Shown: positions 4,940 through 63,736 of the stretch, in pieces
Position numbering within the stretch: the first letter of the stretch is position 1
How the letters are laid out: each line of letters begins with the position of its first letter
DNA from: Octopus vulgaris
Lineage: Eukaryota
Length of the DNA stretch: 64,000 bases
Reading direction: 5' to 3'
Assembly: GCA_951406725.2 (NCBI GenBank)
Contig: OX597834.1
Coordinates: 46,500,001 to 46,564,000 of the forward strand
Program-made: the position numbers and the translations under genes
The notes under the pieces: generated by a model
Told to the model about the DNA's origin: nothing
What the model saw: the letters and a program-made list of their open reading frames with translations, nothing else
Database searches by the model: none

Positions 4940-5121
4940 TGTTGGCGATTTTCTTTCTCCGTCTTCCCTTCTTTCAACCTTTCCGTTTTCTATGTTTCTG
5001 ACGAAGAGCTCCGCTCGAAACGTTAAATCCTTCTTTCTTTCCTTTCCTGAGCGTCCAATAACACTATACTTGTTCCACATCCTCGTGTTGTGTTTTCTCT
5101 TTGTTCATGTTTGGATTACCT
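4940..5121 (+). mobile_element. Penelope-like 3' terminal fragment (family C) ending in (TA)n
   Basis: Second copy at about 31700-31895; contains a minimal hammerhead motif. Confidence 0.65.
4994..5028 (+). ncRNA. Minimal type I hammerhead ribozyme motif
   Basis: GTTT-CTGACGA-A-GAGC(TCC)GCTC-GAAA-CG-TT-AAAT: intact core boxes, 4-bp stem II, palindromic ACGT stem III, 4-bp stem I including one G-U. Confidence 0.65.
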
Positions 5122-5294: not shown

Positions 5295-6559
5295 CTGGGT
5301 TGTCCGGAAAGTTCGTGCCGATTTTTAAAGGAAAGAAACAGGTCAATATATACTTGCCATTACATTTTTAATCAACCAAATATGAACCATTTTGTTGCAC
5401 GATGCGTCTCCATCTTTCCTTTAACTTGAAAATACCCACTTCCCAGAATTGAGGTGGTTTCGTGGCAAAGAATTCATCAAGGTATTTTTTTTACGTCGTC
5501 CAAGGAATTGAAATTTTTGCCAATTAAGACTATTCTGCAGAGACCTGAATAAGTGGAAATCCGAAGGAGCAATATCTGGTGAATATGGAGGGTTGAGTAA
5601 CACATCCCAGCCGAGCTGCAGCAATTTTTGACTTGTTGCATTATCATGTTGGAAAACAACACCCTTCCTGTCGGCCAATTCTGGACGTTTCTCTTGAATT
5701 GCTGCTTTTAACTCGTCCAGTTGTGTGCAGTATTTCTCAGAATTAATTACCTGGTTACTTGGGAGAAGTTCATAGTATAGAATTCCTTTCCAATCCCATC
5801 AGCCACAAAGCAATACTTTTTTAGAGTGAAAACCCGCTTTTGGGGTGACTAAGGGTGGCTCATGTCGCTTACTCCAGGATCGCTTTCTCTGAACATTTCG
5901 GTAGATAATCCATTTCTTATCACCTGTCGCAATTTGCTTTAAAAAAGGCACGTTTTCATTCCGTTTATAAAGCAAGTCACAGGTGGAAATGCGATCCAAA
6001 AGGTTCATCTCACTCAACTCATGTGGTACCCAAACATCATAGCGATTTGTGTACCCAAGCTTTACCAGGTGCTCATGAACGACGGATTTTGATAGGTTGA
6101 GGCTTTCTACCAATTCTCCGGTTGTGCAATGTGGGTTATTCTCAATTAATGACTTGATTTGATCATCAACTGTAGTGGATGGTCTGCCTGATCGCTCTTT
6201 ATCAATAAGGCTACAATCTCCAGCTCGGAACCTTGCAAACCACTTCCGTACAGTTCTTTCGGATAAAGAAACATCACCGTAAGCTGCGCATATTTCTTTG
6301 GTTGCTTGTGAGGCATTTTTCCCTTTACGGAAAAAGAAAAGCATCAAGTGCCGAAAATGAACTTTCTTATCTTCCATTTTAAAGGGTTACAGAATTAACA
6401 CAGGTTACAGGGACATAAACCTTCTTCCACGAAAAGATAGCTTAAACTGTACTCTAAATGGAGGTGTAGTCTAATCCTATTTTATGAACTCAACCATGTT
6501 CTAAAATAAGTCGAAAGGTAAGCTACTATAAATCGGCACGAACTTACCGGGCAATCCAA
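5295..6559 (-). mobile_element. Near-full-length mariner (DD34D) DNA transposon, inactive
   Basis: 30-bp TIRs (CTGGGTTGTCCGGAAAGTTCGTGCCGATTT and AAATCGGCACGAACTTACCGGGCAATCCAA), TA on both sides, about 1.27 kb. Confidence 0.95.
5360..6377 (-). pseudogene. Mariner transposase pseudogene
   Basis: HTH N-terminus, WVPHEL, TGD, HDNA and YSPDIAPSD motifs; in-frame stop at about 5799 and downstream indels. Confidence 0.92.
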
Positions 6560-8037: not shown

Positions 8038-8760
8038 CCAAGCACTGATCCTCATTGAAATACTGTACAATCCACGACTGGCAGTTTGCTGAACAGAGTG
8101 GATTACCAGCTCTTGTGCGAACCGCAGCTGCAACTCGATATGAAAAGACTCTTCAGGCAATCGGCCAAGATACTCAGCATATTAGAGAACAGTGTGAATT
8201 ATTTACGTAGTTTCGAATAAAATGGAAGACTATACTATCTGAACCAGATGTTCTGGTTCAGATCGTATAGTCTTCCTTGATGTTTCTGTTAAAGCAGCGA
8301 AACTGCTTTGACTAATTTAAGTTGGACAAAATGTTCATTTACTCAAACAGATTATTATTGCAATGGTCTTATCCTATTTTCTCATTACTTATTCTGCTTT
8401 TAAACTGAAGCCCTACATAAGATGACCATGCTCTGTTGCTGTGTGTAACACTAGCAAAGGATTTGGACAGGCAGATACTAGCAATACTAGCAAAGTATTA
8501 CTCGTGTGTAATACTAGCAAAGGATTTGGACATGTCTCACGGAATTGCATTTAAGGTTCCTTTTCAAGATGTGCACGGTAACCCCAAGAGAATGAAAGAA
8601 ATTACAGTTTTGCTCTCTGGTCATTTAGGAAAACTCTGCTAGTCGTTCTTAAGGGTAATCTACTTTGCACTTTAAGATCATACTTCTAAGAATTCTATAT
8701 TTAAAGACGTCGGGAAAAAACCATCTTTTTGCCAACATGAAAACACGAAGGTAACCCGTA
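8036..8760 (-). pseudogene. Possible very decayed CR1/Jockey-type LINE reverse transcriptase fragment
   Basis: Minus strand reads ...VFQ*GSVLG near 8040-8065, resembling PQGSVLGP, with weaker upstream resemblances; many stops. Confidence 0.3.
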
Positions 8761-12010: not shown

Positions 12011-12516
<506 letters not shown>

Positions 12517-12519
<3 letters not shown>

Positions 12520-12855
12520 GACCCCCTTCGGTCATAATTGACCGTGGGATTGCGCCTAGAAAGTTACCCTCCCAGGCACAAGTCCGGGCAAGGTTGTTTT
12601 ATGGAAGACCAGCAGTTTACCCATGCATACCAGCCTCCCCTCTCCACGCCACCAGTGTTATCCAAGGGAGAGGCAAAGGGGCCGATACAGCTTGGCACCT
12701 GTGACGTTGCAACTCATTTCTACAACCGAGTGAACTGGAGCAACGTGAAATAAAGTGTCTTGCTCAAGAACACAACACGCAGCCCGGTCCGGTATTCGAA
12801 CTCACAACCTCACGATCGTAAGCTCGACGCTCGAACCACTGAGCCATGCACCTTC
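12517..12855 (-). mobile_element. SINE family B1, inverted relative to 12130-12459
   Basis: Reverse-complement match along its full length. Confidence 0.85.
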
Positions 12856-12867
12856 ACGCACACACAC

Positions 12868-12982
12868 TCAGCCGAAATTGCGAGGATGATCCAGTTCTTG
12901 ACTGAAGATTAAAGGCTTCGAATGATCCGTTCGTGTTTTTAGTCTCATCTATTTGGATGTTTTGCGTTCTTGTCCCAGTTTG

Positions 12983-14720: not shown

Positions 14721-15000
14721 ACAATCAAAATAAGCAACAAGAATAACTTCGGTAATTTGGTACGATCGTTTCACGCTACATCATTTTATTAAATGTTGCA
14801 AGTATTACAACAGTTTTAAAATGTTGAGCAATCATCAGCCATTAATAGAAGTTTTCCATTAATACATAATTTTACCGAAGTTATTCTTGGTGCTTATTTT
14901 GATTATAATCACCCCATGGATTTATATGGATAACACTATACAAAATTCTGGTGCATCTAACTTAAGTACCATATTCATTTGAATCTAAATTTTTGCTGAA

Positions 15001-22335: not shown

Positions 22336-23001
22336 AAGATAGATACCAAAGCCTCGGAAAAATCAAAGTCCTTGTGATTTTGAAAATGAAAACTGTGCGG
22401 AAGCCTGTCTTAATGATCGTTCCTGTTGTTGAGTTTCAATAACAGTACCACTCCACCCTGAGGGTGCAATCAGCAGAATACACTCTGTTGCATGTATTCG
22501 GAGCGATCCATCAACAAAGCTACTTAAATTGACGTGTAACTGGTTGGGTATTCCACAGACACATGTACCCTCAACGTGATTCTGAGGTAGTATCACTGCT
22601 ACACAGTGTACATGACAAGAGGGCTGTACTTTTTTGAATTACAGGTACAATCCACCAGACAGGCTTCAGTATATTTCCCATCAATCCAATTTCACCCAGA
22701 AGGCGGAGGTTAACTCGAGTTTACAGGAAAACGACGTTCCTAGCACAAGATTTCGTGCAGCGAAATCGAAATCAAGACCTTCTGATTGCGATGCAAATTC
22801 GTTAACCGTTAGACCGTATGTGTGTGTGTGTGTGATTAATGTTATACATGTTCTGATTTATAGTTTTATGTATGCTTTCGAAAAAGAATACACACGAATA
22901 TATACATACATATGTATACGTAAATACGTATGATTGTACACACACACACACATTCATATATATATATATATCAAAATAAGCAATAAGGATATCCAGAGGT
23001 A

Positions 23002-23091
23002 ATGCAGTACGATCGTTTCATGCGACTCCATTTAATTGAACAATGCAAATATTACATCAGTTTTAAAATGTAGAGTAATCTTCAGCTGCAT
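23002..23091 (-). ncRNA. Type I hammerhead motif (family A), best stem I
   Basis: ATGCAG-CTGAAGA-[long stem II]-GAAA-CGATCG-TA-CTGCAT: perfect 6-bp stem I and GUA cleavage triplet. Confidence 0.65.
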
Positions 23092-23169
23092 AAAAATATA
23101 GAATTTAGTTAAATTCAAAGGATTTATTTGTATAGTTTTTCTAATAACCATAATCACAGAGAGGATAAG

Positions 23170-23233: not shown

Positions 23234-23786
23234 GAGGGTGAGTCAAAAAGTAATGCCATTTTGTTTAGGACAGGTATAATTACCAACACAGGAACATGTA
23301 TCATACATCAAAATGAAGCTGGTCCTCTGTGGATCACACCCCTACTTCTCAACATAGTCACTGTTTCTCTCAATAGTAATGTTCCACCTTCGAATGAGAG
23401 CATGTATCCCTGCCCCGTAAAATTCTGTTGACTGTTCTTTGAGCCACTAGTTTTCACTTCCTCGTCATTGGAATAATGTTTGCCTCTCAAACCCTCTTTC
23501 ATGGAGCCGAAGAGATGATTGACCAGTGACAATGATAGTCCAGTGACGAGGAAGTGAAAACTGTAGAGAAAAAGTGGCTCAAAGAACAGTCAACAGAATT
23601 TTCGGGGCAGGGATACATGCTCTCATTCGAAAGTGGAACATTGCTATTGAGAGAAACGGTGACTACGTTGAGAAGTAGGGATGTAATGCACAGAGGACCA
23701 GCTTCATTTTGATGTATGATACATGTTCCTCTGTTGGTAATTATACCTGTCCTAAACAAAATGGCATTACTTTTTGACTCACCCTC

Positions 23787-27379: not shown

Positions 27380-27610
27380 AAGTTCAGCAAAGTTTAGATT
27401 CAGATGAATATAGTACTTAAGTTAAAGGCACCAGAATTTTGTATGGTATTATCCATATAAATCAAATGGAGTGATTATAATCAAAATAAACAGCAAAGAT
27501 ATCCAAGGTAGAGTAGTACAATCGTTCGAGGCTACTTCATTTTATTAAACACTGTAAGTATTACATCAGTTTTAAAATGTCGAGCAATCTTCAGCCACAT
27601 ATAGAATTTT
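27380..27610 (-). mobile_element. Penelope-like family A copy with degenerate hammerhead (27513-27598)
   Basis: Colinear with both parts of 14721-15002. Confidence 0.65.
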
Positions 27611-28392
27611 ATAATTAAACGGACAATGCACAGTTTTATACTTATTTCATTTGCCAACATTACAAAGAGGGTAGATATATAGACAGAGAGGTTAATTTCA
27701 TCATTAAGAACATGGTGGTAGTATGTCCTTCTCCATCTGTAAATACATCGGTAAATGATCGTATTAAATGTCTTTACATATTGAGTTCGAATCTCGTCGA
27801 GGTCAACTTGGCCTTTTTATTGATCCTGAATCGAAAACAAACATGAACCCCCCCACCCTCAAGCCCCACGGTCAAATAGTAGAGCTGATATTCTCTACTG
27901 CAGCCTGCCTCCTAAAGTTTCTGGCCTGGGAGTCTGAAGCTCAATCATAGATTTCAGAGCAATGGAGGAGGAAGTGGAGGAGGGCGAGGAGAAGAAAGGA
28001 GAGGGGGAGGGGGAGGAAGAGGGGGAAGAACAGGGCAGGAGGGTTGGGAAGAGGAGAGGAGTGGGACTGAGGAGGAGCTAGGAGTAGGAGAAGAACAAAG
28101 AGAACAAGAAGGAGGGGGAGGAGAAAAACAACAATAATGAGGAATAGGAGGACGAAACGTAAGATGAAAAGAGTGATCTTGGTGGCTAGAAATAAAAGTT
28201 AAATCTTCTTCAAATTACACACTGCGATCTTAAAATAAAAAAAAAAACAAGAAAAAAAATACAATTTGGATATTTTAGTTCTAGATAGATATGGATACAT
28301 AAACACATCTGTAAATGTATGTATGTGTATGCATATGTATATACACACATACGTATATACATGAATATATATGTATATACATACATATAAGC

Positions 28393-34175: not shown

Positions 34176-35560
34176 TGTTTCTTTATTAGCCACACAGGGC
34201 TGCACACAGACAGGACAAATTACAAGGTAGAGCTTTTCTCTTGGGGGTAAAAAAAGGGGGTTTGGTTTTCGATCAAAAGGGATCGTAAAAGGAAAGAAAG
34301 AGGACAAAAAAATAAGGGAAAGGAAAAGAAGGGGAAAGGAAAAAAAATTTATCAATAGGGATCGTTATCACAGAAATGTCAATATAAAGTGTAAAGGGGA
34401 GGACAGGTGAGGTTTACCCGTGGAAAGAAAAGCCTACGGAAAAGACCACGGTAACCTCGGTCAATGGAGTCACATGTTATATTTTTTTGCAAATAAGCAA
34501 CTCTCTGTATTAATTTTTACGGTTCATAGAATCATAGTCAAGGTGGCTTCGTCATTCATACGTGCCATCCTTGCTACATTCACCCATCTTTTTTAAAACA
34601 TTCACTAGACAAAACTTGCCTCTCTACTCTCACTTTCCTCTTCAAGTGATACTTGAAGAAGTTGATGAGAGATTGACCAGAGAGGAAAGTGTTTGTCTCT
34701 AATCCTTTCAGGCGCGTCCACCAGATACATTCTTTCACCATAGCCACAAGTATGATAAAAATAGCTCTTCCTTCCCGTTTGAAGGAAGGAGGTGTGACGA
34801 TATTAACGATAGACTCGGCTGATAAACTGACACGTCCCACACGTGACAGCAGTCGTTCGATATAAACCCACAGGTCGGAGATTGTTGGACACTGCACGAT
34901 TGCGTGCAGAACGGTTTCGTCGCTCTGCCCGCATCTCGGGCAGGTCGGCCCCGTGTTTCCCGAGCCATGCCTATAAAGCTTATCCCGAATGGGTAGCGCT
35001 TCTCGGTAGCACTGCCAGGCCAGGGATCTCTGGAAGTTGTCCATAGGTCCCGGCCCGAAAGTCGTTTCAAACAGGCGGGTCAGGTATTCCTCGTCGACGC
35101 CCAGGTTTGCCCCAAGATCGTCGTCGTACCTCCCCTCCACTAATCCCCTATAGAATGCTTTGGTTGTGTTGAAGTCACTCAAAGTCGACCCGGGACGACA
35201 GAGTTGCTTTAGAGCAACGCGACACTCGCGGTGCCATTCGCCCTTCCTCGGCCTCTTTTTGATCCACGACTGCAGTTCGGTCATGGAGACGAGCTGCGGG
35301 AACGCGTGCCTCACAAACGGCGACCACACCTGTTCACCTTCGTCTACATAGAGCCGGAGATGTCGCAGTCTCAGCGCGTGTCTGCGCATCATCAACCATG
35401 GTATGCCCAGCCCTCCTTTTAACGGGTGTTGACAGCAAATGGTTCGCCTGACCATCGGGACGCATCCTTTCCACAAGAAGCGGAAGAGAATGCGTTCTAG
35501 TTTGGTGATGGTAGGGTCGGGACAAGGTACGACGGTCAGGCGGTAGTAGATGATGGACGC
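34176..35560 (-). mobile_element. 5'-truncated Tx1/L1-clade LINE inside (GATA)n
   Basis: ORF2 C-terminal region (RFLWKG, KGGLGIP, zinc finger CPRCGQSDETVLHAIVQC), open for about 980 bp; 3' end GGCTAATAAAGAAA; GATA arrays on both sides. Confidence 0.92.
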
Positions 35561-36124: not shown

Positions 36125-36385
36125 AAGCCGTTGTAGGCTTTATTGTCGTGCCCCCCCCCAGCGGGGGTGGCATTTGAACTGTTATCCTCATTAAGAGGAA
36201 AAAATATTATAGGTTTCCCGTTTTTGGGGATAAGCAATTTATTATTGCGAGAAAAATTAAATTTCAGCCGATGTAGGCTCTATTGTGGCATCCGCCACTA
36301 GCGTGGGTGAGATTTGAACTGTTGTCCTCGTTGTGAGGAAAAAAAAAGTAAAAAATTATAGGTTTCCCTTTTTCTGGGATTAAAT
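36125..36385 (+). repeat. Two diverged direct repeats of about 110-120 bp in the LINE 5' UTR
   Basis: AGCCG.TGTAGGCT.TATTGT...ATTTGAACTGTT.TCCTC...ATTATAGGTTTCCC occurs twice. Confidence 0.8.
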
Positions 36386-36410
36386 TGTGTATCATTTATT
36401 TCGAACGAAT

Positions 36411-37148
36411 ATGTCGGTCGAAATAATCCCAGAAACGAACCAGCTGCATGAACCAGCAAAAAAGTTCGCGGCAGTAACCGCTGTCTCTTCTAAAGATATT
36501 GTATTAGTAACGGAGAAGCTCTCCGAGCTTTTTGAGAGAATAAAAGAGGAGGGTGGGGATATGAAAATCTTACCCTTCCCTAGTGTTGAAAATCTGAAGA
36601 GAAGGACAGTCGTTTACAAAACGTACTGTCCTTCATCGAAGAAATTCAAGCACTTCGAAAAGTGCGAAATAGAAAAATGCCTGGCCCCTATATGGAAAGA
36701 TATAAAATACATAGCGAGGGTTCGGGCATATGGAACAATAGCGGCCAGATTTGAGACGGCTGAAAAAGCCCAAGAGCACTCAGTGAGTCCTCTGAAAACG
36801 AAGGAGGTGGTGCTGCTCCGAACATACATGGGAAGGAGAACAGCACGCGTCCGAATAAACGAAGTACCACCAGAAATTGAGGCAAGGGAGGTGATGGCCG
36901 CCCTGTTGTATAACAGGACGGACAAAATCACCTTCCTTCAAATTACATGCACTTCCCCACAATGTTGGCAAGGGCAGAGCATCTCTGCGATTATTAAAGG
37001 AACGCAACAAGACATCGAAATACTACCAGAAAGAGTGCTCTTGGGGGAAGATATTGCCCTCAAGATTCAAGTAGAGGGCAAAAAGCCCACGTGTTTCGAA
37101 TGTGGCAAAAAAGGCCACATTCGCGTAGAATGTGAAAAATGGAAGTAA
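36411..37148 (+). CDS. LINE ORF1 (gag-like, CCHC zinc knuckle), probably prematurely stopped
   Basis: CFECGKKGHIRVEC = CX2CX4HX4C; P/T/K-rich coding-like sequence continues past the stop. Confidence 0.75.
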   Translation: MSVEIIPETNQLHEPAKKFAAVTAVSSKDIVLVTEKLSELFERIKEEGGDMKILPFPSVENLKRRTVVYKTYCPSSKKFKHFEKCEIEKCLAPIWKDIKYIARVRAYGTIAARFETAEKAQEHSVSPLKTKEVVLLRTYMGRRTARVRINEVPPEIEAREVMAALLYNRTDKITFLQITCTSPQCWQGQSISAIIKGTQQDIEILPERVLLGEDIALKIQVEGKKPTCFECGKKGHIRVECEKWK

Positions 37149-37539
37149 AAAATAAGTGCGCAGACATCAGACCCTTCAACTACAGAAAAAAACCCTAAAC
37201 CCGCACACAAATTAACTCCCACAGAAACAAATACTTCCACCCCACCATCTGTGGAACCCGCTCCCAAACAAAACACACAAAAACCCCCAGGCCATTCACA
37301 CACCGGTCCCGACAGAAACAAATGCACCCACCCTCTCTGAAGTAACAACTCCTCTGGAAGACACCATGGAGGTGACCGAGGGGGAGTTCAAGACACCCAG
37401 AAAAAAGAGAACATATGCACCTTCCCCATCCATATCCCCCACAAAGAAAAAAGAAGAAAAACAGCACACCACAGAGAAAAAAGATCCCGCTCCACTGTCC
37501 CAGAAGAAAAAATAAAAAAGAACAAAGACGGAACAAAAA

Positions 37540-39150
37540 CTATCGGTACTTGGTGGCGGTCCTCGAGAAGGCTGGCCTGGGCCCGACCTTTCGCGGTTGG
37601 ATTGCTGCGTTGTACAGCGACATCGAGTCCGTCATAAAAGTGAATGGTTTCCTTTCGAAGCTATTCAGGATCGAGCGCTCAGTACGTCAGGGGTGTCCCC
37701 TGTCCCCGCTTTTGTATGTACTGGCCCTCGAGCCATTATTGCGGAAGTTGGAGCCACTAGGGGGCGCACCGCATGATCTATGGTGTGGAAGAGGAGCTAT
37801 GGTGTATGCAGATGACAGTTCCTTCATCGTGGCAGATGGGGGCCAGCTTCCAGTGGTGGAAGAAGCTATCAAAAGTTACGAGGCGGTGGCCGGAGCAAAG
37901 GTTAACAAGGACAAGTCAATTGGTTTGCAGCTCGGCACCTGGAGGGGCAAGCCGATGCCGTCCAATAACGTCGTGGAGCGTTGGACGGAAGGTCCTGTTA
38001 AGCTGCTCGGAGTCTGGTTCGGGCCAGACCTCCAGATTGAGAAAAATTGGAGTGAGGTGGCCAACAAGGTGACCGCTCTAATCCAGACTTGGTCTGGGCG
38101 GGCGTTATCCCTGCTAGGGAAGGCGGAGGTGGTGCAGATGTTTATAGCATCGGTTATTACCTACCGTCTGACCATGTTGCCTTGCCCCGATTTGTGGATG
38201 AATAAGTTGGAAAGAATCTTTTTCCACTTTTTGTGGAAGGGAGGAAAGCCACTCGTGAAGCGCTGTGTCTGCTGCCAGAAACCGCTAAAGGGTGGGCTAG
38301 GAATGCCTTGGCTGAGGATGCGAAAATTCGCGTTAAGTTTGAGGCACCTCTGGCTTTATCTGGATGGAGAGCAGGTGTAGTCACCGCACGTTCGGTTCTA
38401 CCTTCCGCAATTAACGTCCTTAACGGACATTGGTAATTAGATCAAGCAGAGACCTAGGCTGGAGGACTGGCAATTGGAGTGCCTCCAGGCACTTCAGCTA
38501 CTCACTCGGGCGGGCAATGCCGACAACAAGAGTTCCACCGCGGATTTCTATAGTGGGTTAGTGGAGGTTAAGTCCGAAGACGCCTTGGGGGAGATCCTGG
38601 GCTACGACGAAAATCAGTTAATCAACCTGTTCCGGAGAAATTTCGGGCCAGGGCATCTGGACAATTACCAGAAATCTCTGGCTTGGCAGTGCTTCCGTGC
38701 GGCGTTACCTGTTCGTGATAAACTGGAAGGCACGGAAGTGCCGTCTCGCCGACATGTCCGAGGTGTGGGCAGGACAGGGAAACCGTCTTGCACGCATTTG
38801 TGGAGTGTCCGGAATTAACGAGACTGATAGTTTTCGTAGAGCAACTGTTGTCATCGATGAGAAGAGTACAGCTATCAGCTGAATCTATCATCGAGATTGT
38901 GCCGTCTCCTGCCCTTAACAGGGAAAGGAAGGCTTGCTTTTTCTGTGTAGTAGCCATACTGAAAGAAACAGTATGGAAGACGCGCGTGAGAGGCATAGTG
39001 TCGGGTACCTTTGTATCTGGCCAGGGGTTGGTTAACATTTTTAGTTACCACCTCATTATAAGATCAGGCTGGAGAAAAGGTACCTGTCACGAGACAGATT
39101 CATGAGAAGATGGAAGCCTGTGGCGAGGAAGCTGGGAGTGTTTGGCACCA
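37540..39150 (+). pseudogene. LINE ORF2 remnant (RT C-terminal half plus zinc finger)
   Basis: RT motifs, GGLGMP and C-terminal homology to the 34580-35560 ORF; stops and frameshifts; no endonuclease or RT N-terminus. Confidence 0.9.
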
Positions 39151-39412: not shown

Positions 39413-39759
39413 TAGCTTGCTTACCAACCACATGGTTCCGGGTTCAGTCCCACTGCGTGACACTTTGGGCAAGTGTCTTCTACTATAGCCTTGTGAGTGG
39501 ATGTTGTTTTTAGGCGGAAACTGAAAGAAGCCCGTCTTATATATGTATAAATATATATATATATATATATATATACAAAACTATGAGAGAGAATCCCCTA
39601 TGTGGACGCTCTAACGCTAGATGAGCGTCCACATAGTGGATTCTCTCTCATAGTTTTGTATTAATAATATTTACTGAATCCCAGTCTTTTATCCGCTAGA
39701 CCACTTGGTCTTTAGATTGGTGTTATTAAATTAATATCCAATTTTTTCACCTTTATTTT

Positions 39760-44928: not shown

Positions 44929-46559
44929 ATCATCGAAAACTACCTTAGGAATGAGAACCCAGGTTCGAAATTCCTCCAAGACACCTGAAGAAGGCTGGAG
45001 GGTATATCAAACGAAAAGTTGTGTTAACAATAAACAAGATGAGGACAAATATCCGTCAAATGTAAATAATTTAAATAATGCGTATATCTAAATATGTACG
45101 TATGTATACACACATACACGCACGCACATACATACATGCGTGCATGTGTCTGCATTTATTCTTTTATTCTTTTGCACGTTTCAGTCATTTGACTGAAGCC
45201 ATGTTGGAGCACCGCCTCGAAGGGGATTCTAATCGAATGAATCGACCCCACTACTTATTTCTTTCTTTAAAGCCCAGTACTTATTCTATCGGTTGCTTAT
45301 TGGCAAACCGCTAAGTTGTGGGGTCGCAAACACACCGATTATTGTATATTATTGTATATATACGTAGTTATAGGCATATATTTGTATACATATATATGTA
45401 CTTGTGTTTGTATGTATTTTTATATATCTATATGTATATATATAATTAATAAAATCAGAGTAAGAAAAATTTTAGAAATTTTTACTACCAGTGGCCTAGC
45501 GTGTAGAAAAATTGGTCAATAGACTATATATTATTCATATAAATATAGTGCACGTTTAAACAGATAAGAGGCAACCTCTTATGTGTTTAAATGTACACTG
45601 TATTTAGATGAATAATATGTGTATATATATATATATATATATACATCATACATATGTATGTTTTAGTGCATATGCATGTGTGTGTGTATGTGTGTGTGCT
45701 GGTGAGTATAACAAATTCTCTGGATCTTTAATATGTTATGTATGAGAAACAAATTAGTATTAGTAGCGGGATAGTTACGTTTCTGTTGCTCTGGTGATGT
45801 CACTAGATGGGTGGTGGTGGTGGTGGTGGTGGTGGTGGTGGTGGTGGTGGTGGTGGTAGTAGTAGTTGTAGTAAGGGATGGAGGAGGAGGAGGAGGAGGA
45901 GGGAACTATGTTGTAGCCTTGTCCGGGGATGTTTCCTTTCCCTACCGAGAGAATGTTATTTTGCCCCCTACCCGTATCTAAACCCTAACCCTCACCCTGA
46001 ACCCGTCGATGAGACACACCTTTCCCATCCGGAACTAATCAACATCACATCATCCTCATTACATGACTGTTTCTAATTAGTATTCCACGTGTTATCACCT
46101 CGCTCACCATCATCATCATCATCTTAATATCGTCATTATCGTCACCACGGTCGCCATCATCATCACCATCATCATGAATATCGACATATTCTTCATCATC
46201 ATCAACAACCACATTATCGTCATTGTTACCATTGCTATCATCTTCATCTTCATCATTACACCAACCGCCACCACCACCACTACTACTACCACTACTACTA
46301 CCACCACTATCATCATCATGATCATCATCGTTGTCATACGAATTGTATTAGAAGATTGGAACAAGGCTACAAATCTGGAAGTGGTGTGTGGTTGGGGAAG
46401 GGGGCAGAAGGTACACTTGATTAAAACCTGGTTATATACGTGGCTGATTACACACACACACACACACACACATGACAGAAGTAAATAGACGCCGCACAAA
46501 CCATCGTTTTATGTTTATTCTAACTTTTAAGATTTATATTTTCTTTTGACATTTTTATG

Positions 46560-47360
46560 TTTCAGGTTCTGTATGTGATTTTTTAATCAAGCCATTCCCA
46601 AAAGAAGCCCTGGAACCGTCTGAATTTCAAAGAGACCGTATTGTGGGTCATTCTGAAGGTGTAAAATCGCAGAAAACCTTGGAATCCCGTTTTCTCCAAT
46701 TAATAGAGTGATTGTAGAATTCACCAGAGAGGGGAAGGAGTCCATATCACTTCGCCCAGGTCAACCAGGGCCCGCTGACAGGACCCTTCTCTTTCTTAAG
46801 AGAAGTGTGAAGGATAATGCTCGTTGCATTTCCTCTGACATAGCAGAACAAGTAACCACAAACTTGGTTACTATGGCAGAGCAGCAAGAAGGAAGCCACC
46901 TCTTTGGCCAGCCAACATCATGCAGAGAAAAGATTAGGCCAGTGAGATGGTGGAGAGGCCACTAGCATTTTGAAACAGTGTTTTATTCACAGATACACAC
47001 ACACATGCATATGCACTAAAACATACATATGTATGAGTCCAGATTAGCTGTATTTCTTGACAGTTGTCATGTGTGGGTCTGGAGACTCTGTGATCAAGAA
47101 TTTGCTAAAATTTAGCTTTGTCAGCTAAAATGACCCAAGCTTTGTTGGATGAGAGTGACAGTAAAAAGCCTCCATGATCAAGCCTGTCACCAGATATAAA
47201 CCCTATTGAACACCTCTGGGATATAATGGACAGAGCAGTTCGTAAAAAGAACAAGAAAGCATCTTCAAAGCCAGATCTTTTGAGATTGCTGCATGAAACT
47301 TGGCAAGAAATTCCTCAAGAGAATATTCATCATCTGATCAGTAACATACCTAATAGGGCC
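46560..47360 (+). pseudogene. Decayed Tc1-family (DD34E) transposase
   Basis: N-terminal [21 protein letters not shown]-like segment and SPDINPIEHLWDIMDRAVR motif. Confidence 0.8.
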
Positions 47361-48284
47361 CTTGCATGGACGTTTCTCTCTCCTTCTTCTCCTCCCTCCG
47401 TCTTTTCTCTCTCTCTCTCTCCCTCTTTCTGTCTCACTCTTCGCCTCATCCTCTTTTTCTCTCCCCGTTTTCTTTTCTCCCTGTTGTTCTCTCTTCCCTT
47501 CAACTAATCACGTGGAAGCATTACAATTATGTTCCCTCTACCTCACGTCATGGACGTTTCTCTCTCCTTCATTAGCTCTCTCCTTCTTCTCTCTCTCTCT
47601 CTCTCTCTCCGTCTTTTTCTATCACCCTTTTTTCTTTCTCCCTTTTCTTCTCTAATCACGTGAAAGCGTTACCGCAGGGCAAAGTAACGGAATGACATGC
47701 AGAATTATTATAAGATTTCTTTTTCCCAGAAGATTTTAAGTTGGCAGTTCATTTTATAAGATTGCTTTTCTTTTTAATTGGAGACTGTACTTCTGTATTG
47801 TTTTCGTCGAACCTATCTTGATGTTTACACTTTGACAGACCAAGATCTTCATGTGACGCAGAATATGTTGCTTCCTTGAGATTTTTCTACAATACTTCCA
47901 TTCTTTTTAAAATTTCAGCTCATTCAAGCTGCACGCCGTTCAGCTGACACAACCTAGCTTTTCTTTCAGCTTTAAGTGACCGAAAATTTATTCGCATAAG
48001 AAATTTTGTAGAGAGGCTCTTTGGCAGGCTTTGTTTTTCATATGGCAGGGATGTTCAATAATCACCCTCCTCTACAAGCAAGCTTGGGGAGGGGGGATGC
48101 CGGTTTAGTTACCGACAACCCGACCATGTGACATGTTGCACTGGGTTATATGTCCCGAGTAACATTCGAGAGCGATCTGAACTGACATGCTCTCTCTCAC
48201 ACACACATGCACACACGCATACACACACAGATATAATGTGTATATATGTGTGTGTGTGTGTACATGTATATACATATATATATA

Positions 48285-51320: not shown

Positions 51321-51661
51321 GAGCGTGGTTGAGTGAGGCATGCAAAAACGTGAGCGTGGTTGAGTGAGGCATGCAAAAACGTGAGCGTGGTTGAGTGAGG
51401 CATGCAAAAACGTGAGCGTGGTTGAGTGAGGCATGCCAAAACGTGAGCGTGGTTGAGTGAGGCATGCAAAAACGTGAGCGTGGTTGAGTGAGGCATGCCA
51501 AAACGTGAGCGTGGTTGAGTGAGGCATGCAAAAACGTGAGCGTGGTTGAGTGAGGCATGCAAAAACGTGAGCGTGGTTGAGTGAGGCATGCAAAAACGTG
51601 AGCGTGGTTGAGTGAGGCATGCAAAAACGTGAGCGTGGTTGAGTGAGGCATGCAAAAACGT
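51321..51661. repeat. 31-bp minisatellite, 11 copies
   Basis: Unit GAGCGTGGTTGAGTGAGGCATGCAAAAACGT; copies 4 and 6 share an A>C variant; no spacers. Confidence 0.97.
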
Positions 51662-51894
51662 GAGGCAGATGTTGATTATCAAAGTGTTTTAAATGTTATG
51701 CATGAAAAACTGATTCGTGTGGTCAGAGATGGATTAACCATTAAGCAAATAAGCACCTGCTTAGAGCATCAAGAGAAGGTGGGGAGCACCAGAAAAATGG
51801 TAAATGGTTTGCGACACAAAAGAAATCACTTTAAACTTACGAAAATAATATTGGTTTCACCTTTTGGGACGAGCCCGGTAATTTTGAGGAAGTG

Positions 51895-53345: not shown

Positions 53346-54145
53346 TATTTGAACCTCCGTTCTTGCAGGAAATGAACCCTGTTTCGGAAAAAGTGATAAT
53401 CTGAGAGTGCAAGGTCTGTCTGAGGCAGCGTTTCCAGCCTCTCAAATTCCTTAATTTTGAGCTCGATCACATTGGCAATGTGCGCTGAGACTTACCTTGC
53501 TGTATGAGTGCGCATCTACGATTATCCAAATCCGGGTAGCTAACTTTCAAAGCATCATATACTTGCTGCAGTTGTTGAGTATAAATGTTAGTGTTCACAG
53601 TATGGCCATCTGGAACAAGCTCAAAGTGCAACACTGTCTCGAAATTCCACAAAGCACACAATATAACCTTCTGTTCAAAGCGCCCTTGTTTGACAACAAT
53701 TTCTGAAGTCCGGCCGAAACGAAGCCACTGGTTTCTCATATTAAGTTTACGAATTTCTAGGATTTTCCTGGAGTTGTTTGCAAATGTTCATAAGTCGTTG
53801 AGCATGATTATTGGTCAATTCACGAGGAACTGGTTCACAAGATTTCGATTGATGATGCTTTGTTTCGGGCCAGGTTCTGCCGACAATGTACGAGTGCTTG
53901 TGCTTGGCTATTGTTCATCGCTTTCATGCAAGACCTCATCTTCCACAAAAGAATGTCTCCCGGACCTTGATATGCCTTCGAGGTTGGTGTCACCTTCCTT
54001 GAATCGTCTGAACTAGTTTTGTGCCGCACTTTCTTGACAGTTTCTGGGCCTTCTACATCATTAATCTCTTTTGCCCTTGCATTCAATCCTCCTTTTCCAC
54101 AGGAAGTATAAAATGGCTCGAATTGCAATTTTCTTCACCACTCAT
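53346..54145 (-). pseudogene. Decayed mariner transposase
   Basis: QKVILCALWNFETVLHFEL, TVNTNIYTQQL and DLALSDYHFFR motifs; frameshifts. Confidence 0.85.
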
Positions 54146-55066: not shown

Positions 55067-55148
<82 letters not shown>

Positions 55149-55150
<2 letters not shown>

Positions 55151-55537
55151 GTGAAGGGAAGAAATGGAGCTGAACGAAGATTCTACAAAATTCCTTTTTA
55201 TTATTTTCTACACATGTTTCAAAGGCTTCGGATTGAATAAGGAGACCATTCTGCAGCTTTCTCTTCAGGAAAATCCAGGAATTTAAAATCTCCAAACAAA
55301 TGCTCAGCAAGCTTTTCGAAAAAAACGCTCCCTAGGAGCCCATGGTAAGAATGGCACAAAACTGTCTCTCAGTTGAGAGACAGTTTAAATTCCTGGATTT
55401 TCCTGAAGAGAAAGCTGCAGAATGGTCTCCTTATTCAATCCGAATTTGGGAATTTGCAGCCTTTGAAACATGTGTAGAAAATAATAAAAAGGAATTTTGT
55501 AGAATCTTCGTTCAGCTCCATTTCTTCCCTTCACTAA
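55149..55537. mobile_element. Fold-back Penelope-like element (family E) with two divergent hammerheads
   Basis: Arms 55149-55289 and 55384-55535 look identical apart from a 14-nt indel. Confidence 0.75.
55397..55482 (+). ncRNA. Type I hammerhead ribozyme motif, canonical core
   Basis: ATTTTC-CTGAAGA-GAAAGCTGCAG...TTGCAGCCTTT-GAA-ACA(TG)TGT-A-GAAAAT: 6-bp stem I, about 10-bp stem II, GUA triplet; cleavage predicted after 55476. Confidence 0.75.
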
Positions 55538-55854
55538 TATATAAAACTTCAATCATCCGCTTAAAGCTATTCCCCCATCACCTCACCATACGCAAACATC
55601 TAGTATGTAACCCCTTCCTCACTTTCATTCATATATATATACACACACAAACGTCATTCAACCTTTTCCTATATTCACATCCACACATACCCCTAACACA
55701 CAAAGAAACGTCAGGGTGTGGCTATCAACATTATCGATTTAGTCATAAACGGAAAATCGATGGATCTTTGTTGAAATAAACGTCTTTCACTAACACGTGG
55801 CTACACTTTCTAACGTCTTTGAGTATGTGTGTGTGTGTGAGTCGGCGCCGCGTG

Positions 55855-56537: not shown

Positions 56538-56602
56538 TATATATATATATATATATGTGTGTGCATATATGTATGTATATATATATACACACACATATAT
56601 AT

Positions 56603-57068
<466 letters not shown>

Positions 57069-57228
57069 AATAACCAAGGCTGTATAGATATTAAAGCATT
57101 TAATTGCGATGAACGTAAACAAACAAACGAAGTTTGCTGTAGAAGCGTTGAGATGTCTTGGAAAGTTATATAGGGTAGAAAATATTTTTGTGGGGGAACA
57201 GACGTCGTTGTATATATACCGAAAGAGT

Positions 57229-57890
57229 AAAGGTAAAATACACAGATTTGTTTTACAGGCTCAAGGAGTATATTGGAATCAAAATAATAAAGATATTATA
57301 CAGTTTTGTACAAAATGAGTTTTAGTTCTTTCAAAATAATTACAGTAAGGACCGGTTTCACTTGGGTCATCAAACTAAGGGTTGAAAAATAGACATATTG
57401 CTTTTGGGGGGAAAAAGACACATTCAAGGGGAGATAATTGTTCACTCGGTTATTTTACAGTAAAAGGGAGGTAAATCTTTAATTTCTATTGTTGGTCTAT
57501 TTTTTTTTCTGGCTTATACTTTACAATACATATGTATGCATGTATGTATGTATGTATGTACGTATGTATATATATATATATATATACGTACATACATACA
57601 TGCATACATATGTATTATAAAGTATAAGCCAGAAAAAAATAGACCAACAATAGAAATTATATCCTCCCTTTTACTGTAAAATAACCTGAGTCAATTATCT
57701 CCCTTTGTGTCTTTTCCCAAAAGCAATATGTTTATTTTCAACCTTTGATGACCCAAGTGAAACCGGTCCTTACTGTAATTATTTTGGAAGAACTAAAACT
57801 CATTTTGTACAAAACTGTATAATATCTTTATTATTTTGATTCCAATATACTCCTTGAGCCTGTAAAACAAATCTGTGTATTTTACCTTTT
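57229..57890. repeat. Inverted repeat with arms of about 300-340 bp centred on (TA)n
   Basis: The same peptide ([28 protein letters not shown]) appears in the ORF track on both strands; the right arm has several short deletions. Confidence 0.9.
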
Positions 57891-58492
57891 CTCTTGTGTA
57901 TGTATATGTGTATATATGTGTGTATGTGTATATATGTGTATATAGGGACTAGTGTGCTGTGTGTGCATGTGTGTATGTGTGTATGTATATATATTTTTCT
58001 GTGTGTATATGTATGTGTGGTCGTGTGTGTATATATACATGTGTGTATACGTGTATGCATGTGAGTGAGTGTATGTATATATATATATATGTGTATGTGT
58101 AGATATGTATATGTATATGTATGTGTATATATATGTATATGTGTGTGTGTGTATGTATGTGTGTATGTATATATGTATGTATGTGTGTGTATATATGTAT
58201 ACATATGTGTATAGGTATAAGTGAGAATCTCCTTATTTACCTAAAACTCTATTCTTTTTTATATATATTTTTTTATTTTTTTATTTATTCTTTTATCTAA
58301 TTTACCACTGACTCCTTGACCACTCCCCCAAGTATGATATTTTGCGCTATGCCTACCCCCAAAAAGTCCCCCACCACCACCCCTTTAAACCTGCCAAAAT
58401 GTATAAATGCCAATACAATTCTTGTTAACTAGCTTCCTGAAGATTTCTCTTGAATGAAACAGTTCTAGTCCTGTAGAAGCTCCTTCTATATA

Positions 58493-62990: not shown

Positions 62991-63239
62991 GTAAAAGAAA
63001 GAAGAGAAATGTTAGTATGTAGTGTTCCAAATATCTAGAGACCCAGTTATGTTTGTAGTATAGAGGTGTTTAAAAAGCAGTCTCGAGGACAAGATGATTA
63101 TGTCGAAGTGAATATAATTTGATTTCGTGATTGAGTCGTGTCGCAGAAATTTCAATATTAAAAGAAGCTTGAGAAATCACAGTTTAGTTTTAAATATATA
63201 TTAAAACCGGAATATTAACAGATGTTACCTCATTAATTA

Positions 63240-63600
63240 ACTCACTCACCGGTTCGATTTCCATTCATTTACTTTTTTTTCTTTCTTTCTAAATTTTTCG
63301 TTGCTTCTTACAACCTCTTCAATACTTGTTGACTCTGTCCGTTATCGGAACAGCGATTACGGACAGTTATTGACTCTATCCGTTATCTAGCTCCGATAAT
63401 GGAGTCAACAACTATTGAAGAGGTTGCCAGAAGCAACGAAAATTTTAGAAAAAAATAATAAGTAAATAAGAGGAAATCGAACCAGTGAGTGTGTTAATGA
63501 ATAAGGCATTAAAACAGAATGACTCTTCCCAGACACAGCAAAATTTGCTTTAACACACGAATTCACATAAATAATCTTGCAAACCAGATACAAAAACGAA
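63240..63600. mobile_element. Penelope-like fold-back fragment (family F)
   Basis: Inverted arms about 63243-63350/63394-63490; hammerhead-like core at 63412-63448; similar to 1406-1742. Confidence 0.6.
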
Positions 63601-63736
63601 TATTAACAGATATGTAGGCTATTTTTCAAGTGAACAAGATGTTGTTGAATGTTGAGATATCTTCATGAATGGAGAAAAAAAAATCAAAAGGCACCAAGAA
63701 AGACTCTAACGGCTGCTTTGCTTCGTTATATGTATA

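Follow-up and report, generated by a model that had tools for sequence, protein, structure and literature searches.

An insert of about 400 bases in the Octopus vulgaris genome is hairpin-shaped and consists of two head-to-head 3′-ends of one highly abundant repeat, both bearing a hammerhead ribozyme motif, and it raises the question of what kind of element left it there and whether the motifs could still cut RNA. The window analysed is the whole 64,000-nucleotide stretch of contig OX597834.1 (positions 46,500,001 to 46,564,000), and all coordinates below are counted from its first letter. The initial annotation had described a young fold-back element with two outward-facing ribozymes, within a population of non-autonomous retroelements. 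Here, we propose that the fold-back was probably left by a Penelope-like element (PLE) that inserted in truncated form, and we predict that its motifs would not cut RNA that reads through it.

The surrounding DNA is AT-rich (30-45% GC) and dense in microsatellites, with SINE-like repeats, mariner-like transposase pieces and fragments of non-LTR reverse transcriptases; its repeats were found by masked self-BLAST. Mariner/Tc1-like transposase fragments lie at 5424-6386 (-), 53470-53787 (-) and 47178-47405 (+), and a young 62-bp tandem array at 51321-51664 shows 98.6-100% identity. A broken non-LTR element at 36384-39102 (+) holds a zinc-knuckle ORF, RVT_1 and zf-RVT, with a second piece at 34583-35560 (-), and we take it to be L1/Tx1-like and not a PLE. 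Inverted duplications free of hammerheads are also present: a SINE-like pair around (TA)n (12130-12454/12524-12853, 92%), a mariner-like palindrome (23235-23785), a duplication of nearly pure microsatellite sequence around (TA)n (56590-57070, ribozyme-free), and further ones at 873-1156/1741-2031, 1141-1200/1350-1409, 31494-31560/31957-32023, 39577-39657 and 8224-8276; some of the hammerhead-less inverted duplications are nested inversions around ribozyme families.

The plus-strand motif at 55397-55482 is a type I hammerhead motif of the dimer type, with a 6-bp stem I (six Watson-Crick pairs, 55397-55402 with 55477-55482), a long bulged stem II and a palindromic stem III, and its cut is predicted after 55476. 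The conserved core CUGANGA/GAAA/NUH is present as CUGAAGA at 55403-55409, GAAA at 55465-55468 and the triplet GUA, and the stem II/loop II domain of 55 nt contains a stem II of 4 bp, a bulged C and 7 bp. Stem III is formed by ACAUGUGU, which contains the 6-nt palindrome ACAUGU and provides 2 bp in a monomer and 8 bp in a dimer. The three helices with an open stem I are present, the constrained hammerhead fold (-14.6 kcal/mol) lying 2.1 kcal/mol above the minimum-energy structure (-16.7 kcal/mol), and the G10.1-C11.1 pair is absent from the base of stem II, where G.U or, in a shifted register, A-U is found. Rfam gave no hammerhead model among nine matches at E<=10 over 55140-55620, nor among the best 150 of 414 matches over the whole window; its miRNA matches in the window, under their gathering scores, were rejected as hairpin and microsatellite noise. 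The initial annotation was right to place a type I motif here, but its wording 'canonical' is too strong for a motif with so short a monomeric stem III, no G10.1-C11.1 pair, a fold other than the minimum and no Rfam match.

The mirror motif at 55203-55274 (-), with its core start at 55268 and its predicted cut after 55209, keeps the core and stem I intact and, as had been noticed, differs from the plus motif solely by a 14-nt deletion between 55228 and 55227 (55444-55457 of the plus arm), which removes part of loop II and half of upper stem II. Between the arms, 55384-55536 and 55287-55149, 139 of the 139 shared bases are identical apart from this 14-nt gap in the left arm, which supports the suggested youth of the copy. 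In the comparison with shuffled sequence that the initial annotation had called for, a strict hammerhead descriptor matched three times in the window (both arms and 4998+) versus a mean of 0.004 in 500 dinucleotide shuffles, and a loose one allowing one core mismatch matched six times versus a mean of 0.10 and a shuffle maximum of 4, figures that show non-randomness while giving a biased rate, with a descriptor tuned on the window after the motif had been sighted and two arms that are not independent. The loose match 62403-, a single copy in the window, may be due to chance.

The anatomy of the insert was read from the window together with contigs of public sequencing runs, of which 20 listed hold part of the stretch and five hold half or more of it, none being recorded as RNA; four of the 24 listed runs were aligned to 55275-55830 at 80% likeness, X1 and X5 being DNA, and X9 and X12 RNA, by guess. 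On the left, the 3′-end of the minus copy runs into a (TA)n tract (55071-55148), the likely insertion target according to the sequence and the arm alignment. The longer copy of the repeat's 3′-end, pseudo-LTR-like, occupies 55149-55371 (-), with a length of 237 nt when the deleted 14 nt are included. The 'centre' of the fold-back, 55288-55371 (-), is family sequence upstream of the minus-copy ribozyme and no neutral spacer: contigs of X1 and X12 join it to the arm on the opposite strand (55286/55288 to 55387/55384), making it the upstream portion that naturally belongs to the minus copy, and other copies continue behind 55371 in four X1 contigs and one X12 contig, so the minus copy is 5′-truncated at about that point. 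At the turn stands a 26-nt junction palindrome (55360-55385; 12-nt arms, 2-nt loop), in which the last 12 nt of the minus copy are folded back and then lead via a short T run into the plus arm. This shorter inverted copy of the same 3′-end (55384-55536, +) starts where the family depth climbs about tenfold, and its motif ends 54 nt short of the common 3′-end at 55536, which places the hammerhead in the 3′ terminal repeat. The right end alone bears a 16-nt tail of family sequence (55537-55552, +): the family continues behind 55552 in all four aligned runs, and loose ends at 55537 enter TA repeats in X9 and X12, so the plus arm keeps a tail absent from the minus copy. The single-copy right flank follows at 55553-55830, and the arm-tail-flank junction is found inside one contig per DNA run (55508-55830; no differences at depth 11.1 in X1, two differences at depth 29.4 in X5, which carries another organism label), so at least two samples share the insertion. 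Neither the junction 55371-55385 nor the 14-nt deletion of the minus motif appears in the contigs listed, and no target-site duplication is discernible, the left flank being (TA)n. The head-to-head arms reported earlier are upheld at this locus, and a symmetric unit 55149-55537 is not, as the centre is part of the minus copy and the plus arm extends to 55552.

The family is very abundant, and its depth drops steeply toward the 5′ side. Summed contig depth, which is not a copy number, amounts to about 6,300x (X1) and 7,000x (X5) that of the unique flank over the arm, about 790x and 930x over the centre, and about 180x and 250x at 55351-55369, a fall of the kind that 5′ truncation predicts; at 55388, however, X1, X5 and X9 also show the arm joined to a second upstream variant, so the depth step there is partly subfamily structure and not truncation. 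The same data bear on a rather unlikely account, along the lines of the initial annotation, in which the family would be a dedicated short non-autonomous element, ORF-less, about 240-400 nt long and made of a pLTR only, that uses PLE protein in trans, has no long parent and inserts by the same mechanics. An arm depth about 8-fold that of the upstream sequence and two different upstream sequences at 55388 suit such an element, as do the lack of a codon pattern in the sole open frame (variants 7/5/4 by codon position) and the lack of a credible protein match for this 56-aa frame; non-autonomous PLEs with pLTRs are described in Chlamys (PMC8557442), and solo pLTRs can act in trans (PMC3846280). 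However, no fixed short 5′-end is seen, as other copies run on behind 55371 in five contigs, and contigs extend the arm on its upstream side by 140-233 nt or more (30 letters being visible per loose end), and steep 5′ truncation suffices for the depth profile. Longer family copies numbered zero both in metagenome contigs, searched with two patterns, and in viral contigs.

Fold-backs without hammerheads occur in the window as well, so that inversion need not be made by a retroelement, which counts against the PLE account. Their frequency (12130-12853, 23235-23785, 873-1156/1741-2031, near 56590-57070) would favour a history, very improbable in our judgement, in which a single hammerhead-bearing copy inserted and was later folded back by generic inverted duplication in AT-rich or microsatellite sequence, or in which the hairpin is an assembly artefact from long reads that form hairpins; arms that are 100% identical bar one deletion, a pair at 57k with many small deletions in one arm, and a junction found in none of the contigs listed point the same way. 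However, neither arm is a plain copy of the other, the tail being found on the plus arm alone and 72 nt of upstream sequence in the minus copy alone, an asymmetry typical of PLEs; moreover, the turn coincides with the point where the element itself is truncated and lies outside (TA)n, and an X12 contig holds another copy with an inverted tail joined directly before 55400. At that loose end the inverted tail abuts stem I itself, forming a mini fold-back of the same family.

The fold-back is not the only hammerhead locus here. A relaxed parse of 19 repeat copies provides the hammerhead catalogue of the window, and recognisable (intact or near-intact) cores occur in four further families, at 4998+/31763+, at 44985+/44046-, at 14838-/23085- (59-nt stem II domain, palindrome ACGATCGT) and at 63415+/63322-/1539-, which agrees with the earlier impression of several families in 64 kb, whose labels A, B, C and F came without coordinates. 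The family with the 59-nt stem II domain, whose copies lie at 14723-14862, 22972-23106 and 27479-27618 (-), has a perfect 8-nt stem III palindrome; two copies keep intact cores, stem I differs per copy yet pairs, and the base of stem II is mismatched. A family at 12902/19377/25714 is doubtful. The degenerate motif formerly pointed out at 57743-57769 is borne out as one half of a degenerate core pair, 57373(-)/57743(+), without stems I and II; the region 57211-57906 is palindromic as a whole via a central microsatellite (299/304 matches), and it has many small deletions, almost exclusively in its right arm, which might stem from sequencing-read or assembly errors in a hairpin. The head-to-head pairs 1406-1756 and 63228-63613 belong to one family with UUGAAGA/UUGAAAA cores and an AAUU stem III, and in both the right arm reaches further than the left; like the fold-back, these two pairs (1.4k and 63k) and the core-bearing head-to-head pair at 44k have arms of unequal 3′ length, in favour of the PLE account. 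Nine of the 19 catalogued 3′-ends, as given by BLAST of microsatellite-masked sequence, lie within 25 nt of (TA)4+, versus 4.6% of random unmasked positions, in line with the (TA)n neighbourhood claimed by the initial annotation; at the fold-back itself, the (TA)n adjoining the left end is a likely AT-rich/microsatellite target.

Variation within the family, scored where a variant reaches 5% or more of the depth in the DNA runs, is absent from the core (0/13 positions) and from stem I (0/12), and is found in stem II (7/24), loop II (7/31) and inner stem III (1/6). Core and stem I compared with stem II plus loop II (14/55) give a Fisher p of 0.004, and the core against loop II alone (0/13 vs 7/31) is non-significant at p=0.086, tests in which the positions are not independent since the variants descend by subfamily. 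Among the seven stem II variants, three keep pairing unaided, and two make up a reciprocal A-U/U-A swap (A55421U with U55453A, found in two equally deep X9 contigs). Another would pair only together with a change in its partner, which has a similar frequency, and the last re-creates G10.1-C11.1 in one register and breaks A-U in the other; C at 55464 (C11.1) accounts for 6% and 2% of the family depth in the two DNA runs. In stem III, a variant at 55472 (33-35% of depth) turns ACAUGUGU into the perfect 8-nt palindrome ACAUAUGU, and an X9 loose end carries a second perfect palindrome, ACACGUGU, with duplex energies of -7.0 and -10.3 for the perfect palindromes vs -6.0 kcal/mol here. These palindrome variants fit pairing between molecules, by analogy with metazoan PLE motifs, for which it is described (PMC4209133). 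A further proposal, which we hold to be decidedly unlikely, would make the family a short non-autonomous PLE derivative of thousands of copies, whose long-armed hammerhead is still selected for dimeric cleavage via the 8-nt self-complementary stem III, and whose fold-backs switch the ribozyme off and feed A-to-I editing; if true, it would offer a natural, countable system for the in vivo role of PLE hammerheads.

Could the fold-back itself cut RNA? The initial annotation supposed that it could cut transcripts from either strand, which now appears unlikely. The whole element folds as a single hairpin of -268.9 (+) or -271.9 (-) kcal/mol, and in a read-through plus transcript the pair probabilities of stem I and upper stem II are all 0.0; for the plus arm alone they are 0.42-0.47 and 0.56-1.0, respectively, with only 0.12 for the closing pair of stem III. 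The minus motif, short of half its upper stem II, has a constrained fold of -2.2 vs a minimum of -8.2, and for two plus motifs the active dimer, drawn with loop II unpaired, reaches -24.9 vs a cofold minimum of -41.6. Transcription from either side makes the antisense arm first, and because each strand holds one sense motif, no dimer can form in cis. As modelled, the fold-back copy would probably not cut read-through RNA, and a transcript starting within the centre would be the only kind to escape the hairpin. The published metazoan PLE motifs do not cleave as single copies (PMC4209133), and the PLE ribozyme of PAc needs the element's protein (PMC11167929).

At the DNA level, contig depth across the cut site 55476 is flat (ratio 0.94 in X1 and 0.97 in X5), which agrees with uncleaved RNA as the insertion template, as reported for PAc (PMC11167929). 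A depth step of about 3-fold near 55484-55487 in X9 and X12 was considered as a cleavage end and rejected, as contigs cannot show RNA ends; the deepest X9 contig at that step (depth 80.2) belongs to a diverged subfamily that crosses the cut site and has its loose end before 55487. One X9 contig aligns from exactly 55477 with three more unaligned letters and is uninterpretable. The cut site also bears on a scarcely credible account, a non-LTR retrozyme, in which a tandem hammerhead repeat would be cut to monomers, circularised and reinserted. Retrozyme-like traits (PMC7229834) are the type I fold, in which stem III has 2 bp and its loop is palindromic, the unit of a few hundred bases and the low GC, but the family copies do not start at the cut site, the copies at the fold-back locus are inverted and not head-to-tail, and no tail-to-head joint is present among the two joints listed.

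Based on these findings and on published PLE biology, we propose how a PLE insertion could have produced the fold-back. First, the element's GIY-YIG endonuclease would nick AT-rich DNA, and uncleaved RNA would be reverse-transcribed from two internal sites close to each other, a TATATA motif and a site further out, the latter giving the tail. The two cDNAs would then stop early, truncated at 55371 and 55384, and their 5′-truncated ends could be joined through a 12-nt snap-back and microhomology over a few Ts; also compatible with the data is one snap-back copy that later lost 72 and 14 nt. The 5′ truncation, the adjacent inverted truncated copy in head-to-head position and the junction palindrome are all present, the junction being seen in the window assembly only, and this insertion-unit architecture supports the earlier placement of the hammerheads in Penelope-like terminal repeats. 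In the parent element, the ribozyme may act as a dimer, with the self-complementary stem III pairing two copies of the same sense within a tandem transcript, or alternatively with assistance from the element's protein. Since each strand has a single sense copy, which the long hairpin sequesters, the fold-back as modelled is most likely inert as a ribozyme, and if transcribed it is likely a double-stranded-RNA (ADAR) substrate. Dimeric hammerheads of PLEs were reportedly the subject of Lunse et al. 2017.

No PLE reverse transcriptase or GIY-YIG domain was found in 145 of the 155 window ORFs of at least 65 aa, ten low-complexity ORFs being excluded. The testable anatomical features fit insertion of a PLE terminal repeat or are indecisive, and we infer the defining ORF, and the link of the fold-back family to it, only by analogy. 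The arm was also considered as the start of a PLE ORF, for which a weak search gave no candidate among longer proteins; one match at E 4.7e-4 among 1.84 billion representatives was to a 55-aa tandem repeat, with 20 bits per unit, and was rejected as chance. MITEs are marked by terminal inverted repeats with a TA duplication, and a MITE was rejected on the unequal ends, the 5′ truncation and the ribozyme cores.

X12, which is RNA by guess and not matched to a DNA sample, weakly hints that family transcripts undergo A-to-I editing. Five of 30 variant rows occur in X12 and in no aligned DNA contig, and all five are A>G on the ribozyme strand (55452, 55487, 55489, 55490 and 55501; three of them spaced within 4 nt on a single contig with depth 5.9); these variants are absent from X9, and no matching T>C excess is seen. 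Alternatively, they may be private variants of expressed copies. A lizard Penelope is massively edited and octopus hyper-editing is high (PMC5625713). Fold-back copies, as near-perfect 140-bp duplexes in read-through RNA, may add to the hyper-editing of the lineage.

The insertion itself is ordinary, one more family within a documented pattern. In Octopus vulgaris, 31 PLE families with recently active insertions have been annotated, in a paper whose main text makes no mention of hammerheads (PMC13282606). The literature search, with repeat databases (Repbase, Dfam) and supplements, which may hold the family, outside its scope, found no description of the fold-back family, and on hammerheads with octopus Penelope or cephalopods it gave only PMC8557442 and a twister-ribozyme paper. 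The in vivo role of PLE hammerheads is described as open (PMC8557442; PMC11167929), and the family may serve as a modest test object: its core is intact, its palindromic stem III covaries, and natural variants are numerous.

Among known systems, the closest are the EN+ PLEs (Penelope/Poseidon, Neptune, Nematis). In their insertion unit, an inverted 5′-truncated copy adjoins the terminal repeat and only one end carries a tail (PMC8557442), and PLEs show head-to-head arms, junction palindromes read as self-priming, and pLTRs of 193-218 bp (PMC3846280). The fold-back shares with them the head-to-head truncated 3′-ends, the junction palindrome and the one-end tail (PMC8557442; PMC3846280), together with the AT-rich/microsatellite target, a hammerhead near the 3′-end and a 237-nt copy within the pLTR size range; however, it is ORF-less with no ORF linked to it, and its tail has 16 nt vs the published 30-40, which counts against the PLE account. 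With the metazoan PLE hammerheads (min-HHR, D. virilis-type) it shares type I topology, an intact core, a small palindromic helix III, a long bulged helix II, an extra nucleotide after position 9 and opposite-strand pairs, which in that work lie 100-700 bp apart and are attributed to truncated PLEs (PMC4209133), whereas here stem I has 6 bp, the stem II/loop II domain 55 nt and the self-complementary stem III 8 nt, and G.U or A-U replaces G10.1-C11.1 in most copies, C11.1 being found in 2-6% of depth. The Poseidon element PAc of the lizard Anolis carolinensis nicks and extends both strands at AT-rich DNA and starts reverse transcription on uncleaved RNA from two internal sites bracketing the tail (PMC11167929), and likewise two 3′-end points split by a tail, an AT-rich target and insertions uncut at the ribozyme site are found here; the PAc ORF starts inside the hammerhead, whereas the open frame through the present motif has no start codon, codon signature or protein match. 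Non-LTR retrozymes share the type I hammerhead in a short ORF-less repeat with a proposed origin from PLE pLTRs, but they occur as head-to-tail tandems giving monomers and circles (PMC7229834; bioRxiv 10.64898/2026.07.22.740005), whereas the fold-back is an inverted pair.
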